Below are positions 1,355 through 7,396 of a stretch of DNA of 64,000 nt, one piece after another (position 1 is the stretch's first letter; every line of letters begins with the position of its first letter). Under the pieces are notes generated by a model. That model did no database searches. It saw only the letters and a list, made by a program, of their open reading frames with translations, and had not been told where the DNA came from. The stretch covers positions 143,456-207,455 of the forward strand of contig SCUM01000001.1 of assembly GCA_004297215.1 (NCBI GenBank), written 5' to 3'. The position numbers and the translations under genes are program-made. The stretch comes from Patescibacteria group bacterium. GTDB lineage: Bacteria; Patescibacteriota; Patescibacteriia; UBA9934; GWF2-40-263.

Positions 1355-1358
1355 CTTA

Positions 1359-1410
1359 TTCCGGGGTAGTCTCCGACCCGACGGGTCGTAGACCCGGAGG
1401 GCTCAGCGGC
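1359..1410 (+). repeat. 52-nt repeat copy 1: tRNA-Asn 5'-end mimic (TTCCGGGGTA..GCTCAGCGGC) split by a 32-nt hairpin insert
   Basis: Near-identical to 1665-1716 with 1 mismatch. Its outer parts match tRNA-Asn positions -5 to +19 at 1742-1765. Confidence 0.6.
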
Positions 1411-1420
1411 TGCGCGATGT

Positions 1421-1675
1421 ATGTACTTTGTCTACTTGCTGCAAAGTGAGAAAGACCATCAATATTACATCGGTCAGACGCAGGATCTCTCCATTCGCCT
1501 GGAACAACACAACGCCGGTACCGTACGCTCTACACGACATCGGACCCCTTTTCGCCTGGTCGGTCATGAGACTCATCCGACACGAGCAGAGGCCCGTTGG
1601 CGTGAGTACACTCTGAAACGGAGTGCACACCAACGGAAAAAGTTCATCGAGAAATTAACGCACATTCCGGGGTAG
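1421..1675 (+). CDS. GIY-YIG nuclease family protein (YhbQ/UPF0213-like), 84 aa
   Basis: N-terminal YFVYLLQSEKDHQYYIGQTQDLSIRLEQHN fits the GIY-x10-YIG ... R ... HN pattern of small free-standing GIY-YIG proteins. Confidence 0.75.
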   Translation: MYFVYLLQSEKDHQYYIGQTQDLSIRLEQHNAGTVRSTRHRTPFRLVGHETHPTRAEARWREYTLKRSAHQRKKFIEKLTHIPG

Positions 1676-1716
1676 TCTCCGACCCGACGGATCGTAGACC
1701 CGGAGGGCTCAGCGGC
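1665..1716 (+). repeat. 52-nt repeat copy 2 (tRNA-Asn 5'-end mimic with hairpin insert). It overlaps the last codons and the stop codon of the GIY-YIG ORF.
   Basis: Direct repeat of 1359-1410. The ORF ends ..HIPG-TAG, using the repeat's GGTAG. Confidence 0.6.
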
Positions 1717-1746
1717 ATCGCTGTGTCTCGCACGTGCAAATTACAT

Positions 1747-1821
1747 TCCGGGGTAGCTCAGCGGCAGAGCAGTGGACTGTTAATCCATTGGTCGTGGGTT
1801 CGAATCCCACCCCCGGAGCCA
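1747..1821 (+). tRNA. tRNA-Asn (anticodon GTT), CCA encoded
   Basis: Manual cloverleaf: acceptor TCCGGGG/CCCCGGA; D-arm GCTC-AGCGGC-AGAGC; anticodon stem GTGGA/TCCAT with loop CTGTTAA; T-arm GTGGG-TTCGAAT-CCCAC; discriminator G then CCA. Confidence 0.9.
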
Positions 1822-1954
1822 TGAGCGACTGTGTCTGGCGACCCAGACACGGTCGGTCAATAGAGCATCAAGAAATTGGTGTGCTGCTGACCGATAGAGG
1901 CGACTTCACCGTAAGTAGGGAGAAGGTCATTTAAAAGGAGGTGCCGGAACTTTC

Positions 1955-2545
1955 TTGAATATGGCCAGAAAATGTTTCATCTCGTTTAAGACAGAGGACA
2001 TCGCTTACAAGGAAGCGATACAAAATGACCCCAACATAGACATGATTGATAAGTCTCTGAATGAGGCTATAGATTCAGACGACGAGGATTACATTATGCG
2101 CGCGATCCGTGACCAGTACCTGTCGGACTCCACGGTGACGATTCACTTGATTGGGAACAAAAGTTCCGAGGTCCTCGGTTACGAGGAACAGAAATTCATC
2201 AAGCGAGAACTCCAGGCTTCTCTGTATAACGGAGAGAATAACGCAAGAAGTGGTATTCTCGGCGTCGTGCTTCCGTCCATGTACGAAAGTATCTTTAAGG
2301 GGCCTTTCGAATGTACCACCTGTCGTGAGAGTCATAATTGGGTGATCGTCGGGGACGGGACGACGGTTTCGGAGTTCCATCGCAACTACTACATACAACA
2401 CGACAAGTGCCATCACGCGGAGGATGATCGCTATTGCGTGCTTGTGAAGTGGGACGACTTTCGTCTCAATCCCAACACGTATATCGAACAGGCGTTTCTG
2501 AAGCGAGATCACGCCATCGCGGAAAAGGTGAAGGTGCGCCCCTAA
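1955..2545 (+). CDS. ThsB-like TIR-domain protein (DUF1863-type TIR). The ATG at 1961 may be the true start.
   Basis: N-terminal RKCFISFKTEDIAY resembles the (K)RVFFSFHYQD motif of Thoeris ThsB. The central VTIHLIGNKSSEVLGYEEQKFIKREL...GILGV resembles ThsB VLIGSQTFNRRWCRYEI...GNKIIGI. SD-like AAGGAGGTG lies upstream. Confidence 0.6.
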   Translation: MNMARKCFISFKTEDIAYKEAIQNDPNIDMIDKSLNEAIDSDDEDYIMRAIRDQYLSDSTVTIHLIGNKSSEVLGYEEQKFIKRELQASLYNGENNARSGILGVVLPSMYESIFKGPFECTTCRESHNWVIVGDGTTVSEFHRNYYIQHDKCHHAEDDRYCVLVKWDDFRLNPNTYIEQAFLKRDHAIAEKVKVRP

Positions 2546-2550
2546 TCAAT

Positions 2551-3039
2551 ATGTTCAGACTAAAGAAACGAGAAGCTATGGCAGTTCCCGGCAATACCGA
2601 ACAAGAACCTGATTCCGGGTACGCACGGCTAGAACAGCAAATCAGGTGGTATGACACGAAGTCGCAAAGCGCTCAGCATTATTACAAATGGGCGAAGATC
2701 CTGGAATTCAGTTTTGCGGGACTCATTCCTTTTTTAGCGAGCACATCTTCGTGCATCACTGCTGCATTAGGAATTCTGATTATCGTCCTCGAGGGTTTGC
2801 AACACGTAAACCAATGGTCGCACAATTGGATCACATATCGCTCCACATGCGAGGCACTCCGACATGAGAAGTACCTGTACATTGGCCGTTCAGTTGTTTA
2901 TGCGGGAATGAGCGATGAGGAGGCGAAAAAAGTGCTCGTTGAACGAGTTGAATCTTTGATTTCAACCGAGCACGCAAAATGGATTTCCCAGCAAGATCTG
3001 ACAACAAAAGCCCCCCACAGTGCGAAGAAAGAAGAATAA
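2551..3039 (+). CDS. DUF4231/SLATT-family two-TM protein, a putative membrane effector
   Basis: LEQQIRWYDTKSQSAQHYYKWAKILEFSFAGLIPFLAS...LGILIIVLEGLQHVNQWSHNWITYRSTCEALRHEKYLY is a W..Y...Y..W + 2TM + EKYLY architecture typical of SLATT/DUF4231. The start is 6 nt after the TIR gene stop. Confidence 0.55.
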   Translation: MFRLKKREAMAVPGNTEQEPDSGYARLEQQIRWYDTKSQSAQHYYKWAKILEFSFAGLIPFLASTSSCITAALGILIIVLEGLQHVNQWSHNWITYRSTCEALRHEKYLYIGRSVVYAGMSDEEAKKVLVERVESLISTEHAKWISQQDLTTKAPHSAKKEE

Positions 3040-3064
3040 AGCGTCTGCCCTTGAGTCCTGCTAC

Positions 3065-3250
3065 CTAGACCGCCGGTTCCACCGTTCCATCAGAGATCCT
3101 CATGGTTGATTTGATGTGAGACAGAAGATCTCGTTTCTCCTCCCGGGTCCCTTCCTTCAGAATATATTTTGCGCACGCGTACACATTGATGTCCGGCATG
3201 ATCTCGGCAATCTTTGCGGTCGTGGCGTGGTCGCCAAGGCTGGAGATCAT
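3065..3250 (-). CDS. Small hypothetical ORF (61 aa) between the SLATT gene and mod. It may be non-coding.
   Basis: ORF only. Weak RBS, no recognisable motif. Confidence 0.2.
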   Translation of the reverse strand: MISSLGDHATTAKIAEIMPDINVYACAKYILKEGTREEKRDLLSHIKSTMRISDGTVEPAV

Positions 3251-3332
3251 TTTTTTCTACCCTTTTTACCCACAATCAGGCCTCTCTTTTTTACCTTAAC
3301 TACTGTAAACTTAGGGGGTTCGAAAAACCGCT

Positions 3333-4994
3333 ATGTCTAGACACCAGAAGTACAAAAAATGGGACAAGGAGAAGCTGATCTCGGAGATCTGCCGACTTGA
3401 GGACTGCAAGAAATACGGTTTGGTTTGGGAGGATAAGCCTGAGGATGTGGCGGAGCAATGCAGGGAGCAGTTACCGGTTTTAGAGGAGGTGCCAGAAAGA
3501 GCGCATCTCAAAGATGGATTGCTTGGGACCAATATTTTGATAGAAGGAGATAATTACCACGCACTTTCCGTTTTAAATTACACGCATAAGGGCGCGATTG
3601 ATGTCGTTTATATTGATCCGCCCTATAACACAGGAGCTAGGGACTGGAAATATAACAATGACTACGTCGATATTAACGACGTTTTCAGGCACAGCAAGTG
3701 GCTCTCGATGATGCAGAGACGGCTCCTTCTCTCGAAAGATTTATTAAAGGATGATGGCGTACTAATCGTGACGATCGATAAGCATGAGCAGCCGAGAATC
3801 GTAATTTTACTTGAGGAGCTTTTTCCGGATAAGGAAATAGTCACAGTCGTCATTGAGCACAACCCCAAGGGCTCACCGACACGGCACTTTACGTATACAA
3901 ATGAGTTTGCAATTTTCGTAGTACCAAAGGCGACGAATGTGATAGGAAAAGATCCGACCGAAAAAGTGGACACGCGCAATCTTCGCAGAGCTGGTCGTGC
4001 GTCGACTCGAAAAGAAAGGCCGACGATGTTTTATCCAATTTACGTAAGGAGTGGAAAGGTTATAAGGGTTGGTGATACGCCGGACGCCTCATTTCATCCT
4101 AAAAAAAGAAATGTTGTACAAAAAAATGGTGAAATCGCTATTTGGCCCATCGATGACGATGGTCGAGAGAGGCGGTGGCACTTTGGACTGGATTCGATCA
4201 ATGATTATCTAGACCGCATTGAGGTTCGGCAGTCCAAGGGAGAAATACAATTATTCGTGACGGCTTCGCCCGGGCGATACAAGACTGTATGGCGAGGCGG
4301 CGAATTCGACGCTGGTAAATATGGAACCTCCCTGGTCAGGGACCTGATCGGCGTCGAATTTCCTTACCCAAAATCTGTATTTGCGACGGCTAAGTGTCTC
4401 GAGACCGTTGTACACGGGCGGCCCGATGCTTTAATTTTGGACTATTTTGCCGGCTCTGGAACCACGGGGCACGCGACGCTTTACCTCAACAAAAAGTTTG
4501 GTGGTAACCGGCGATTCATACTCTGCACTAACAACGAAAACGACATAGCAGAGGATATTACCTTTCCGCGACTGATTAAAGTAATTGACGGCCACAAGGA
4601 CCATAAGGATACAACAGGCATACCGGTCAATCTGCGCTACTTCAAAACGACCTTCGTAAAAAAATCAGACGTTTCAGATGATACCCGCCGTGAGCTTGTG
4701 AAACGTTCGATGGAGATGATCTGCGTGAAGGAGGGCACCTTCCAAAAAATTGCAGACAATAAGCAGTTCAAGATTTATCGCGACGTGAATCATGTCACCG
4801 GCATCCTCTACAATCTGGATGCAATATCCGAATTCAAGAAGAAGATTTCGGACCTTGGTCTCTCGGCAAGCATCTACGTATTTTCGTTAACGACGGATAC
4901 GTACGATGCCGATTTCGTAGATTTGGAAGTCAAATACACGCTTTGTCCGATCCCGGAAAGCATCCTCGAGGTCTATCGCAAACTGTTCGCGTGA
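3333..4994 (+). CDS. mod: Type III restriction-modification system methyltransferase (Mod, beta-class N6-adenine/N4-cytosine MTase)
   Basis: DPPY motif (VVYIDPPYNTGARDW) lies N-terminal to the FxGxG SAM motif (LDYFAGSGTTGHA), with a variable region between them. This is the beta-class order typical of Mod. Confidence 0.85.
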   Translation: MSRHQKYKKWDKEKLISEICRLEDCKKYGLVWEDKPEDVAEQCREQLPVLEEVPERAHLKDGLLGTNILIEGDNYHALSVLNYTHKGAIDVVYIDPPYNTGARDWKYNNDYVDINDVFRHSKWLSMMQRRLLLSKDLLKDDGVLIVTIDKHEQPRIVILLEELFPDKEIVTVVIEHNPKGSPTRHFTYTNEFAIFVVPKATNVIGKDPTEKVDTRNLRRAGRASTRKERPTMFYPIYVRSGKVIRVGDTPDASFHPKKRNVVQKNGEIAIWPIDDDGRERRWHFGLDSINDYLDRIEVRQSKGEIQLFVTASPGRYKTVWRGGEFDAGKYGTSLVRDLIGVEFPYPKSVFATAKCLETVVHGRPDALILDYFAGSGTTGHATLYLNKKFGGNRRFILCTNNENDIAEDITFPRLIKVIDGHKDHKDTTGIPVNLRYFKTTFVKKSDVSDDTRRELVKRSMEMICVKEGTFQKIADNKQFKIYRDVNHVTGILYNLDAISEFKKKISDLGLSASIYVFSLTTDTYDADFVDLEVKYTLCPIPESILEVYRKLFA

Positions 4995-4995
4995 T

Positions 4996-7278
4996 ATGAA
5001 ACTCAAGGATTATCAGAAAATCGCGGTAGACAAGCTGCTCTCCATAAGCAAGAAGTTGTTGCAGAAAGAGGGTATGCGCATATGCGTCCTGAAGGCGCCG
5101 ACTGGCTCGGGAAAGACCATCATGGTCGCCGACTTCCTTGATCAGCTCGCCCATGCTCACATCGCCGGCGCATATTCTTTTATATGGATCAGCGGTAACA
5201 AACTTCATGAACAGAGCCGGGCAAAGCTTGAAGGATATCTTTCCGAGAGTCGCTATTCGTTCTCGTATCTCGATGAGGCCAGCGCTGGAAGCTTTTCGGA
5301 AAACGAGATTGTCTTTGTGAACTGGCATAGCCTCACGAGGCAGGACAATGAGACCGGCGAGTATACGAACGTCTTCATGAAGGAGAATGAGCAGGACCGT
5401 GACCTGCCGACCTTCATTCGTAACACCAAGGCGGAGGGGCGCGAGGTCATCCTCATCGTGGACGAGAGCCATTATCATTATTGGAGCAAAAAGTCGCAGG
5501 AGCTGGTCCAGTCCGTCATCGGTCCAAAGCTCATCCTTGAAGTCTCAGCGACGCCGACCAACCAGCCGACCCCGGACGAGCTTTCGAGCGGAGACGCTGG
5601 GTACGTCGCAGTGAAGTACGATGACGTGGTCGCGGAAGGAATGATCAAGAATGAGATTGTCATCAACAAGGATGTCGGTAAGTTCAGCGACATCCAGCGA
5701 TCCGCGGACGAGGTCGTCATTGACGCCGCGATAGAGAAGCAGAAGGAGCTCAAGAAACGGTTCGTCAAGATTGATGTCGACATCAATCCGCTCGTGCTCA
5801 TCCAGTTGCCGAGCGAGAGCCAGACGACGTCCGTGCTCGACAAGACCAAGCTTGAATTCGTCGAGGCGTACCTGAAGAAAAAGCACGGCGTCACTGTCGA
5901 GAACGGCAGGCTTGCCGTGTGGCTTTCGAATCGCAAGGACAACGTCGTGAATGTCGAGATGCCGAACGCCAAGGTCGATGTCATGATCTTCAAGCAGGCA
6001 ATCGCGCTCGGTTGGGATTGCCCGAGGGCGCAGATCCTTGTGATGTTTCGTGAGATTCAGAGCCAGGTGTTCGAGATCCAGACGGTCGGGCGCGTGCTCC
6101 GCATGCCCGAAGCGAAGCACTATGAGGATGAGGAGCTCAATCGAGCGTTCGTCTACACGAACCTGCCAGCAATCACCATCGCTGCTGACGACGCGAGTCA
6201 GCGTTTCTTTCAGGTGCATCCAGCGCATCGCATCGAAGGGTACGAGGCGGTAAAGCTTCCGTCGGTCTATATCGGGAGGACCGACTTCGGCGACCTTACG
6301 CTCTCTTTCCGAAAGCTCTTCATCGAGGAGGCGAACAAGCGTTGTGGCATCGGGAAAGACGACATCATGGACAAGGCCTTCAAGAAGGCCGACAAATTGA
6401 TGGAGCTGTATCCTGAGGAACTGACCCATCCCGTGATCTCGGACGCGGTCGTCGGCAATCTCGACGAGGCAAGGGAGATTGCCGGTGAGAAGGCAGAGTT
6501 CGCCATCCCCGAGGACGAGCTGAAGTATCGCTTCGAACAGTTTGCCAAGATCGCGTCGCTGCCGTATGCGCCGGTGCGCTCGCATACCAAGGTGCAGCAG
6601 GCTATCTACGACTGGTTCGACGGTTACCTCGGATACGAGAAAAGGAGCCGAATCGAAATTCAGCGAGCCGTCGTTTGTTCCGAGGCGAATCAGAAGCTAT
6701 TCGCAGAGATTATCGAGGCCGCAAAGGCTCGCTTCGCCGATATCCGCCGATCTGAACTCGACGGTAAGAAAAGTGAGCAGGCTTACGAATGGGACGTGCA
6801 GGCGATTGAATACTTCAACGAGCGTCACGAACGAATCGCTGTATCGAATTACGCCATGGATAAGTGTTATGTGCTCACAGATCGCTCCAAGCCGGAGAAG
6901 GATTTTGAGCTCACAGTCGCAGCAGCCAAGGGGGTTTTGTGGTGGTACAAGAACGGTGTGAGCAAGCGGGATTATTTTGCGGTGCCCTATGATGACCCGA
7001 AGACGGGTGCTCGTAGGGCCTTCTACCTGGATTATGTTGTCGTCATGAAGGATGGCTCGGTTAGTATCTTCGACACCAAGTCTGGGGTCACGGCGGACAG
7101 CGCCGAAACCGGCGCGAAGTCCGATGCGCTTCAGGCCTACATCAAGAGAAATACGACGAAGAGTAAGAGGATTTGTGGCGGAATCGTCGTTAGTCGTCAA
7201 GATGGGACTTTTGTTTTCGTAGGATCGAAATATACTTCGGATCCGAGAGATAAGGGTTGGGTGCGGTTAGAACTGTAG
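4996..7278 (+). CDS. res: Type III restriction enzyme Res subunit (SF2 helicase with C-terminal nuclease region)
   Basis: Walker A LKAPTGSGKT, DExH ILIVDESHY, motif III EVSATP, motif VI QTVGRVLR. Start is 2 nt after the mod stop (translationally coupled). Confidence 0.85.
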   Translation: MKLKDYQKIAVDKLLSISKKLLQKEGMRICVLKAPTGSGKTIMVADFLDQLAHAHIAGAYSFIWISGNKLHEQSRAKLEGYLSESRYSFSYLDEASAGSFSENEIVFVNWHSLTRQDNETGEYTNVFMKENEQDRDLPTFIRNTKAEGREVILIVDESHYHYWSKKSQELVQSVIGPKLILEVSATPTNQPTPDELSSGDAGYVAVKYDDVVAEGMIKNEIVINKDVGKFSDIQRSADEVVIDAAIEKQKELKKRFVKIDVDINPLVLIQLPSESQTTSVLDKTKLEFVEAYLKKKHGVTVENGRLAVWLSNRKDNVVNVEMPNAKVDVMIFKQAIALGWDCPRAQILVMFREIQSQVFEIQTVGRVLRMPEAKHYEDEELNRAFVYTNLPAITIAADDASQRFFQVHPAHRIEGYEAVKLPSVYIGRTDFGDLTLSFRKLFIEEANKRCGIGKDDIMDKAFKKADKLMELYPEELTHPVISDAVVGNLDEAREIAGEKAEFAIPEDELKYRFEQFAKIASLPYAPVRSHTKVQQAIYDWFDGYLGYEKRSRIEIQRAVVCSEANQKLFAEIIEAAKARFADIRRSELDGKKSEQAYEWDVQAIEYFNERHERIAVSNYAMDKCYVLTDRSKPEKDFELTVAAAKGVLWWYKNGVSKRDYFAVPYDDPKTGARRAFYLDYVVVMKDGSVSIFDTKSGVTADSAETGAKSDALQAYIKRNTTKSKRICGGIVVSRQDGTFVFVGSKYTSDPRDKGWVRLEL

Positions 7279-7396
7279 CTCAGAACGCTGTCTTTACAGC
7301 CTATAATCTCTGTAACCCACGTGCGTCGTTCGGCCCGACGGAATACCCCTGAAAGGTTGCCCAAAATTGAGGTCTGTACCCGTACGTCGAGCCATG

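Follow-up and report, generated by a model that had tools for sequence, protein, structure and literature searches.

What is a very small nuclease gene doing between two copies of the beginning of a tRNA gene? The question is raised by a 64,000-nt stretch of DNA from a Patescibacteria group bacterium (assembly GCA_004297215.1, contig SCUM01000001.1, which is 842 kb long, positions 143,456 to 207,455; the whole stretch is called the window below), in which a GIY-YIG open reading frame (ORF) is flanked by direct repeats that each contain the 5′ end of the adjacent tRNA-Asn gene and a hairpin. We find that the module architecture, with a truncated and hairpin-bearing copy of a target followed by a GIY-YIG ORF and the intact target, recurs at many targets and in many lineages, and that the type of hairpin is inherited together with the nuclease clade. 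The locus in the window is probably a reiterated copy of this recurrent cassette, a selfish and homing-like combination of nuclease and hairpin that sits at a tRNA gene.

A repeat search of the window returned a pair of direct repeats, 63 nt long and 92% identical (1358–1420 and 1664–1726), whose 52-nt core differs at a single position (G/A at 1387/1693). The initial annotation of this DNA was thus right to describe repeats around the ORF, and right that the ORF takes its stop codon from the second of them: the reading frame ends with the codons I-P-G-stop inside the second tRNA-like copy, whose nt 8–10 form the TAG. The initial annotation had also treated the 52 nt as one entity, when in fact they combine a truncated tRNA 5′ part with a separate and widespread palindrome of 31/32 nt, cleanly inserted into it. 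Its dissection of each repeat into a tRNA 5′ copy and a hairpin stands, and its boundaries (5 upstream nt, tRNA nt 1–9 and a 32-nt hairpin) do not: each repeat consists of four flank nt with tRNA nt 1–10, a 31-nt palindrome, and tRNA nt 10–19 followed by 5–6 matches in nine positions, such that the insert is best defined as a 31-nt unit (1370–1400 and 1676–1706) between two copies of G10. When 32 nt are removed from either repeat, tRNA nt 1–19 are regained exactly. The tRNA-Asn(GTT) gene itself was placed at 1747–1821 by both ARAGORN and Rfam (73.5 bits, model positions 1–71). The sequence ACATTCCGGGGTAG is found at 1662–1675 and again at 1743–1756, with a 12/14 copy at 1356–1369, and GCTCAGCGGC at 1401, 1707 and 1756. 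The 29-nt hairpin core, searched for across the 64 kb with three mismatches allowed, occurs only at 1371–1399 and 1677–1705, where shuffled sequences lead us to expect no occurrence. We call the truncated copies decoys; the whole module occupies 390 nt and has one ORF, that of the GIY-YIG protein (Table 1).

Could this arrangement be an isolated duplication at this locus, or a fault of assembly, of no wider meaning? Slippage can make repeats near tRNA genes, and metagenome-assembled genomes (MAGs) can be mis-assembled. The independent Logan assembly of SRR8426588 (L229), however, is identical to the window from 1236 to 1795 (100% identity), and therefore the structure is not an artefact of MAG assembly; the same architecture is also present in dozens of unrelated contigs. 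Because of this identity and this recurrence, we consider the explanation refuted and give it almost no credence.

How general is the arrangement? A protein-first profile scan of metagenomes produced 80 loci, corresponding to 66 evaluable non-redundant genes. In 25 of the 66, a tRNA on the same strand begins between −25 and +40 nt from the end of the ORF, and 16 ORFs terminate within the tRNA, most often at U8-A9-G10. The C-termini of such tRNA-ending ORFs read IPG, IRG, YGV, LGE, HLGL or LVGG before the stop, and other ORFs run to a stop in the D-loop (APSSIG, VARSSNG). Nine tRNA identities are represented (Asn, Pro, Val, Lys, Glu, Ala, Trp, Ser and Phe). The full design, from the truncated, hairpin-bearing copy of the target through the GIY-YIG ORF to the intact copy, is common to more than 25 independent loci, and its targets are the nine tRNA identities, one protein gene and the ends of variable regions in diversity-generating retroelements (DGRs). 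The initial annotation's suggestion of a tiny cassette associated with the tRNA gene is therefore borne out, and 5′ mimics at other tRNA genes, which it had proposed to look for, are found at many of them: hairpin-bearing 5′ decoys are present in the window and at L064, L126, L149, L152, L171, L060, L098, L123, L147, L095, L192, L207, L175, L222, L197, L212 and others. Bracketing by two copies, which had been taken for the form of the cassette, is the exception, a tandem reiteration seen in the window and at L173; the usual module has one 5′ hairpin-bearing decoy and an ORF that leads directly into the intact tRNA.

The decoys have a common anatomy. Their first segment runs from 0–28 flank nt to a position k and is usually equal to the intact copy; the second comprises 5–20 nt after the hairpin, often with small indels, and is followed by an AT-rich spacer. 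At L126, the flank, the tRNA-derived sequence and the hairpin triplets of the decoy are those of the window's decoy, and the decoy differs at two positions from L126's own tRNA. At L127, the target is a protein gene whose first 41 codons are duplicated with ortholog-like divergence. At three independent DGR loci, the hairpin and the ORF lie between the stop of the variable protein (..CCGGTAG) and bAvd/reverse transcriptase (RT), and there is no target duplication. Modules of other nuclease clades carry other hairpins in the same place, for example CCCCGCCC-TTCGCGAA-GGGCGGGG at tRNA-Trp and CACCC-type double hairpins at tRNA-Glu. The hairpin family tracks the protein clade, and inside the clade with CTCCG hairpins the targets intermix; the protein of L152, at tRNA-Asn, is closest to that of L158, at a DGR (70%). 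As the hairpin family follows the clade while targets intermix, hairpin and ORF are inherited together as targets change.

Table 1. Features of the module and its surroundings in the window, and DGR cassettes that contain a module
Feature	Position	Strand	Remarks
Decoy copy 1, segment a	1356–1369	+	flank ttat (2/4 vs acat) and tRNA-Asn nt 1–10 (TCCGGGGTAG)
Palindromic mini-element copy 1	1370–1400	+	T + CTCCG ACC CGACG GGT CGTAG ACC CGGAG + G
Duplicated G10 around mini-element copy 1	1369 and 1401	+	
Decoy copy 1, segment b	1401–1419	+	tRNA nt 10–19 exact (1401–1410), then 5/9 vs nt 20–28
GIY-YIG mini-nuclease ORF	1421–1675	+	84 aa, catalytic domain only, UPF0213/Slx1-like
Decoy copy 2, segment a	1662–1675	+	acat and tRNA nt 1–10; gives ORF stop TAG at 1673–1675
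Palindromic mini-element copy 2	1676–1706	+	one mismatch, GGT to GAT, weakening the stem
Decoy copy 2, segment b	1707–1725	+	tRNA nt 10–19 exact, then 6/9 matches
Spacer	1726–1742	+	between decoy copy 2 and tRNA flank; no significant ORF similarity
Intact tRNA-Asn(GTT) with 4-nt flank acat	1743–1821	+	tRNA = 1747–1821
ThsB-like TIR protein	1955–2545		low-GC island
DUF4231/SLATT protein	2578–3039		low-GC island
Type III restriction–modification pair	Mod 3333–4994, Res 4996–7278		low-GC island
DGR cassettes with module	L011/L153 2890–3600; L158 100–2317; L161 1200–3911		

On sequence grounds, the hairpin appears to be a discrete mobile unit in its own right. A hairpin-pattern scan of one genome per species gave at least 120 loci, and the element has the consensus CTCCG-N3-CTACG-N3′-CGTAG-N3-CGGAG, in which the triplets covary. 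All four constant blocks are present in 38 of the matches listed; in this count, which was made without a triplet filter and is the unbiased figure, N1 is the reverse complement of N2 in 32, N3 is that of N2 in 30, and both relations hold in 29 (chance, 1/64). Among 22 distinct cores, which were pre-filtered for complementarity, both alternative 6-bp stems are ∼95% paired with 15–17 double changes, and none of 500 shuffles reached their covariation score. In groundwater metagenomes, homologues of the ORF have a closely similar hairpin with compensating changes just 5′ of the ATG. The length of the insert is constant at 32 nt, with a one-base ambiguity, i.e. the 31-nt unit and the duplicated G. 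Hosts, as labelled and with binning errors possible, are Saccharibacteria, Kuenenbacteria, Kerfeldbacteria, Parcubacteria, Paceibacterota, Omnitrophota, Planctomycetia and a few others, and one Planctomycetia MAG has identical hairpin copies across several contigs (L034, L039, L046 and L076). In viral contigs, the hairpin pattern was found only as non-complementary chance matches inside coding regions.

What kind of element is it? As a short imperfect palindrome of conserved structure that is multicopy and dispersed, it has the properties of a repetitive extragenic palindromic (REP) sequence. The initial annotation had allowed for a ubiquitous REP element that resembles the tRNA 5′ end by chance: dispersed and REP-like the hairpin is, and the similarity to the tRNA is genuine identity, not chance. 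Compared with miniature inverted-repeat transposable elements (MITEs), the unit is itself palindromic and has a 1-nt duplicated G at its flanks, and no parent insertion sequence (IS) was identified. As a side observation, the palindrome also occurs within larger mosaic repeats (L034, L039, L046, L076, L112, L125, L135, L141, L143 and L146), with flanks such as ggcgccgt..ggaagaatc and with neighbouring GC hairpins, and the four of these loci that belong to the Planctomycetia MAG have up to three copies per 8 kb, in clusters like bacterial interspersed mosaic elements.

A REP-like element found beside a small nuclease gene calls to mind the REP-associated tyrosine transposases (RAYTs) and the IS200/IS605 family. 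Could the GIY-YIG protein be an analogue of these, a transposase-like enzyme of the 31-nt palindrome that inserts a single-stranded hairpin into loops of folded DNA, with the duplicated tRNA fragments as collateral of breaks at palindromes? In single-stranded form, the 32-mer (the 31-nt unit and one flanking G) makes a 25-nt imperfect hairpin with a 7-nt tail, symmetric on both strands, which together with the covarying stems suits such an enzyme. The sites of insertion suit it too: in tRNAs they are loops and junctions of the cloverleaf (10/11, 13/14, 19/20, 21/22, the anticodon loop and 53/54), in three cases (L013, L040 and L103) the hairpin is nested in the loop of another hairpin copy, insertion is often after GGTAG or GG, and a single nucleotide is duplicated. 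Additionally, the Slx1-like fold is that of a structure-specific nuclease, and, as with RAYTs, the gene adjoins one copy and there are many solo copies elsewhere. The likeness to REP/RAYT and IS200/IS605 systems thus extends from the short imperfect palindrome with covarying stems, multicopy in some genomes, to the small nuclease gene by one copy, the little or no target duplication and the short sequence preference. The enzyme here, however, is a GIY-YIG protein rather than an HUH Y1 transposase, and no HUH gene lies within the module; there is usually one hairpin, not two inverted ones, and the 5′ end of the target is duplicated. We know of no prokaryotic GIY-YIG transposase, and a catalytic domain of 84 residues offers no obvious chemistry for strand transfer and no obvious means of binding DNA through a separate domain. 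By itself, moreover, a transposase-like role leaves unexplained why the ORF always abuts an intact copy of the target, and we regard it as unlikely.

Another explanation separates hairpin and nuclease altogether. The hairpin would be an independent REP/MITE-like repeat that settles in harmless sites, dead tRNA fragments included, and has no role in the biology of the nuclease; the GIY-YIG gene would be an ordinary free-standing homing endonuclease or transposon-like insert whose own entry made the tRNA fragment. The many solo hairpins with no GIY-YIG gene nearby, multicopy in the Planctomycetia MAG, are what one would expect from this. A complete tRNA carries the hairpin at one of ∼45 distinct hairpin sites, and in-silico excision yields a complete tRNA-Asn at one locus only (L001–L010), truncated copies being found elsewhere; that a single locus has the hairpin in a complete tRNA fits purifying selection on the sites at which it survives. 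The L180–L184 clade, furthermore, manages with a different terminal structure. The independence of the two parts is nonetheless hard to reconcile with their association: among the matches listed, 10 of 35 hairpin loci have a GIY-YIG ORF within 150 nt, compared with one of 85 chance-match loci (Fisher p = 1.4e-5). In most modules the hairpin also has a fixed relative position, upstream of the ORF and 7–62 nt from the start codon, its family co-varies with the nuclease clade as targets change, and hairpin and ORF are found together at the ends of DGR variable regions, where there is no dead fragment for a hairpin to settle in. We consider this explanation unlikely.

Might the hairpin act in RNA? 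The hairpin-bearing tRNA fragment could be a tRNA-like 5′ untranslated region or processing signal, or else a protein-dependent mini-intron that the GIY-YIG enzyme removes from pre-tRNA. In the window, base pairing is feasible between the 5′ strand of the acceptor stem and the 3′ portion of the hairpin; at L001–L010, a full tRNA-Asn with the hairpin at 53/54 lies directly 3′ of the ORF, and the ORF would be co-transcribed with the tRNA. The pairing of acceptor and hairpin, however, is confined to the combination of Asn with ACC-type hairpins and is not conserved at other targets, which leaves a functional role for what the initial annotation called a mimic unsupported; we tried the mimic as a general feature and rejected it, as the modules at Pro, Phe, Lys, Trp and Glu do not have the pairing. 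In addition, the fold of the 53-mer has a z-score of only −1.4, Rfam matches nothing but the tRNA between 1200 and 2000 (E ≤ 10; no intron), the decoys have no tRNA 3′ half, a complete tRNA is the rare case among hairpin sites, and the GIY-YIG enzymes that we know of act on DNA. A role in RNA is thus very improbable. The interrupted tRNA-Asn of L001–L010 (e.g. L002 3279–3385), a full-length gene whose T-stem and T-loop are separated by the 32-nt palindrome, is conserved across 10 contigs, which come from several groundwater samples. L002 (3466–3757) and L095 (∼2545–2945) each have a tRNA-Asn that is missed by ARAGORN and is split after nt 35 by ∼220–330 nt, the size of a group I intron; both of these intron-containing genes adjoin GIY-YIG modules, and L003, L007 and L010 have a DDE transposase region in place of the neighbouring intron-containing tRNA-Asn.

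What is known about the protein? The ORF at 1421–1675 matches the Pfam GIY-YIG profile PF01541 over residues 1–70 (E = 1.3e-12; 48.3 bits against a cut-off of 22.6), in agreement with the initial assignment. Residues Y5, Y16, G18, R26, H30, N31 and E62 are invariant across 16 module ORFs with 43–66% identity to the window protein; we take their catalytic roles to be those of the analogous residues of I-TevI and UvrC. The nearest solved relatives are the UPF0213 proteins BH0048 (1zg2, 3.6e-9) and EF2693, with 1ywl at 3e-4, and an AlphaFold model of the window protein (predicted local distance difference test, pLDDT, 95.1) retrieved 1zg2 first in Foldseek, followed by Slx1 (TM 0.65–0.68), with UvrC and I-TevI at E ∼0.6. 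The window protein is a single-domain member of a UPF0213/YhbQ-like, Slx1-related clade: PF01541 is its sole match, there is no match to a DNA-binding domain, and the TIGR01453 score, 17.6 bits, falls short of the cut-off of 56. The exact protein is not on record in the exact-protein index. To our knowledge, the very large family of UPF0213/YhbQ-type GIY-YIG proteins (14,571 clusters at 50% identity in a profile search at E ≤ 1e-3) has no known role. Slx1 is a nuclease of branched DNA. Some representatives of the family (P0013, P0027, P0046 and P0105) have 150–215 residues with two matched stretches, or N-terminal extensions of 20–70 residues; these could represent modules in tandem, or gene calls extended across decoy and hairpin.

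Does the module belong to a known system? Slx1 and the UPF0213 proteins (YhbQ, BH0048 and EF2693) are the best matches of the window protein in sequence and fold; Slx1, however, acts with Slx4 in genome maintenance, and the literature searched describes neither mobility nor tRNA linkage for UPF0213 proteins, such that the behaviour seen here is indeed unexpected for genes of the YhbQ type, as had been remarked at the outset. In homing endonucleases of the I-TevI type, the catalytic domain is tethered to a sequence-specific DNA-binding domain, which the window protein does not have. The free-standing GIY-YIG homing genes of the SegB type in phage T4 (PMC2330249) are closer, as these too are small selfish ORFs with the GIY-YIG fold among or next to tRNA genes, presumed to spread by break-induced recombination with co-conversion of flanks, and the foreign decoys of L126 and L127 would fit such a route. 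In contrast, the module protein has only 84 residues and no DNA-binding domain, its hosts are bacterial chromosomes of the candidate phyla radiation (CPR) and other uncultured lineages rather than phages, and the module has an obligatory hairpin, a duplicated and truncated target copy and an ORF that ends inside the target gene. Elements that integrate at tRNA genes, for example tycheposons (bioRxiv 10.1101/2020.12.28.424599), likewise insert between a partial and a full tRNA and leave the tRNA functional, and in the window, too, a direct repeat of part of the tRNA, the 5′ part, bounds the insert. The module differs from them in its size of ∼0.3 kb, in having no tyrosine or serine recombinase, in duplicating the 5′ part (8–45 nt) and not the more usual 3′ part, and in the palindrome that interrupts the partial copy; the window has no attR-like repeat of the tRNA 3′ end. 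Lastly, group I introns occur at position 35/36 of tRNA-Asn/Asp in Patescibacteria (PMC13011429), the same phylum and the same tRNA hotspot, and L002 and L095 have such introns beside the module. The tRNA of the window, however, is uninterrupted, and the 31-nt element, which is no ribozyme, lies in copies that do not function. Homing genes, REP/RAYT and IS200/IS605 systems, tRNA-integrating elements and group I introns thus each have at least one defining feature that the module lacks, and neither the module nor the hairpin sequence was found described in the literature searched, whose coverage does not extend to subscription journals.

We return to the preferred reading, that of a homing-like cassette, and ask how it might work. 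A module consists, in order, of a decoy of the target's 5′ part with the 31-nt palindrome (in the window, the tRNA-Asn flank and nt 1–19, with weaker similarity to about nt 28), the GIY-YIG gene and the intact target, and its mobile core would be the hairpin and the ORF. These may enter conserved, loop-forming DNA, such as tRNA genes, other hairpins and the ends of DGR variable regions. We hypothesize that the Slx1-like nuclease recognizes the DNA structure of the hairpin and cleaves there or a few nucleotides further 3′, and that the break drives homology-assisted insertion by a break-and-repair route, homing-like or Campbell-type, in which the 5′ part of the target is duplicated or carried along; the tRNA would therefore stay intact, with the nuclease gene in its 5′ leader, a place where transcription from the tRNA promoter would be possible. 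The ORF reads into the intact target, and its stop is therefore U8-A9-G10 of the tRNA. Insertions in essential tRNA genes would survive only when an intact copy is rebuilt, and the hairpin, by interrupting the direct repeat, might hinder precise loss of the cassette. The decoy is a plausible candidate for a relic of the nuclease's target site. In the window, unequal recombination between the ACATTCCGGGGTAG repeats could have reiterated the unit of decoy and hairpin, the second of which has no recognizable ORF; we considered 1717–1746 as the remnant of a second, deleted GIY-YIG ORF and rejected it, as the local score of 16 compares with a shuffle mean of 15.3.

Several points weigh against this reading. 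There is no pair of empty and filled alleles among the 10 contigs of the L002 locus or near orthologues of the neighbouring leucine-rich repeat (LRR) gene, and for that reason mobility is inferred from distribution and not observed. Cleavage of the hairpin or of the tRNA gene by the nuclease is a hypothesis, and if the intact tRNA is the target, the resident intact copy has no obvious protection. The duplicated flank varies between 0 and 28 nt and in L002 includes host-specific sequence, which argues for duplication in situ and is not explained by simple carriage of homology arms; our model offers no mechanistic account of this variable flank. Among the matches listed, the majority of hairpins in MAGs of Planctomycetia and Omnitrophota do not adjoin a GIY-YIG gene. 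The L180–L184 clade looks like a cut-and-paste element, with 12–14-nt inverted repeats and 8–11-bp target duplications. In the window itself, the 17-nt spacer at 1726–1742 has no explained origin, and a sigma-70 promoter scan of 1150–2000 showed no consensus promoter upstream. Of the routes to an empty site, the one through the LRR neighbour gene was tried and abandoned, its exact protein recovering only the same sequence (L229); synteny at the locus is not conserved, because the LRR orthologues with 66–68% identity (L230 and L231) have no tRNA adjacent to them.

If the homing-like reading holds, one clade of UPF0213/YhbQ-type proteins forms a compact selfish cassette that has a defined cis element and a defined mode of life inside essential tRNA genes, and structure-specific cleavage of the 31-nt palindrome becomes a testable function for the family. 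It would also explain why CPR genomes contain stray tRNA 5′ fragments and tRNA genes that standard predictors miss, and may point to a new way for genes to move in bacteria with reduced genomes and no classical transposases. A bolder proposal is that the palindrome and the Slx1-like GIY-YIG protein of ∼80 residues constitute a new class of prokaryotic mobile element, one that would recognize structure rather than sequence, target the loops of folded single-stranded DNA (cloverleaves of tRNA genes, hairpins), survive in essential tRNA genes by rebuilding them and, at the 3′ ends of DGR variable regions in CPR bacteria, could serve as target-site hairpin and target-nicking nuclease. We put this forward tentatively and consider it unlikely, though a real possibility. 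As far as we know, the nicking of DGR targets is a step with no assigned enzyme, and the placement at DGRs suggests a candidate pair of nuclease and hairpin for target recognition.

The three DGR cassettes, which are of the CPR type, have one order in common: the end of the variable protein (..GFRCAR and stop, CCGGTAG), the CTCCG palindrome, the GIY-YIG ORF, bAvd, the template repeat (TR) and RT. The palindrome occupies the place expected of DGR target-recognition hairpins, and in L011 a further UPF0213 gene, an ordinary one, lies between TR and RT. In the L180–L184 clade (2440–2790), there is no CTCCG palindrome; inverted repeats ACCCAGAAATGGGT or CACACAGAACTA lie at both ends of the ORF unit, and 8–11 nt of tRNA-Val or tRNA-Ala (nt 1–8/11) are duplicated, a transposon-like signature. 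Orphan 3′ tRNA fragments are found just 3′ of the module's intact tRNA at L060 (4460–4560), L168 (tRNA-Pro) and L188 (tRNA-Trp); they begin in the anticodon stem and have a hairpin in the anticodon loop, and that of L060 comes from a different tRNA-Pro gene, because its acceptor strand mismatches the tRNA of the module.

Downstream of the module, a 17-nt inverted repeat, TGAGCGACTGTGTCTGG / CCAGACACGGTCGGTCA, directly follows the CCA end of the window's tRNA-Asn (1822–1859); it was not scored as a terminator because it has no T-run, and a scan of 1150–2000 found no intrinsic terminator. An island of low GC content (48–55%, 1822–7300) also begins directly 3′ of the tRNA-Asn; the source MAG has a GC content of ∼64%. 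Among the island genes checked there was no integrase domain; they encode a TIR protein, a SLATT protein and a type III restriction–modification pair (Table 1).

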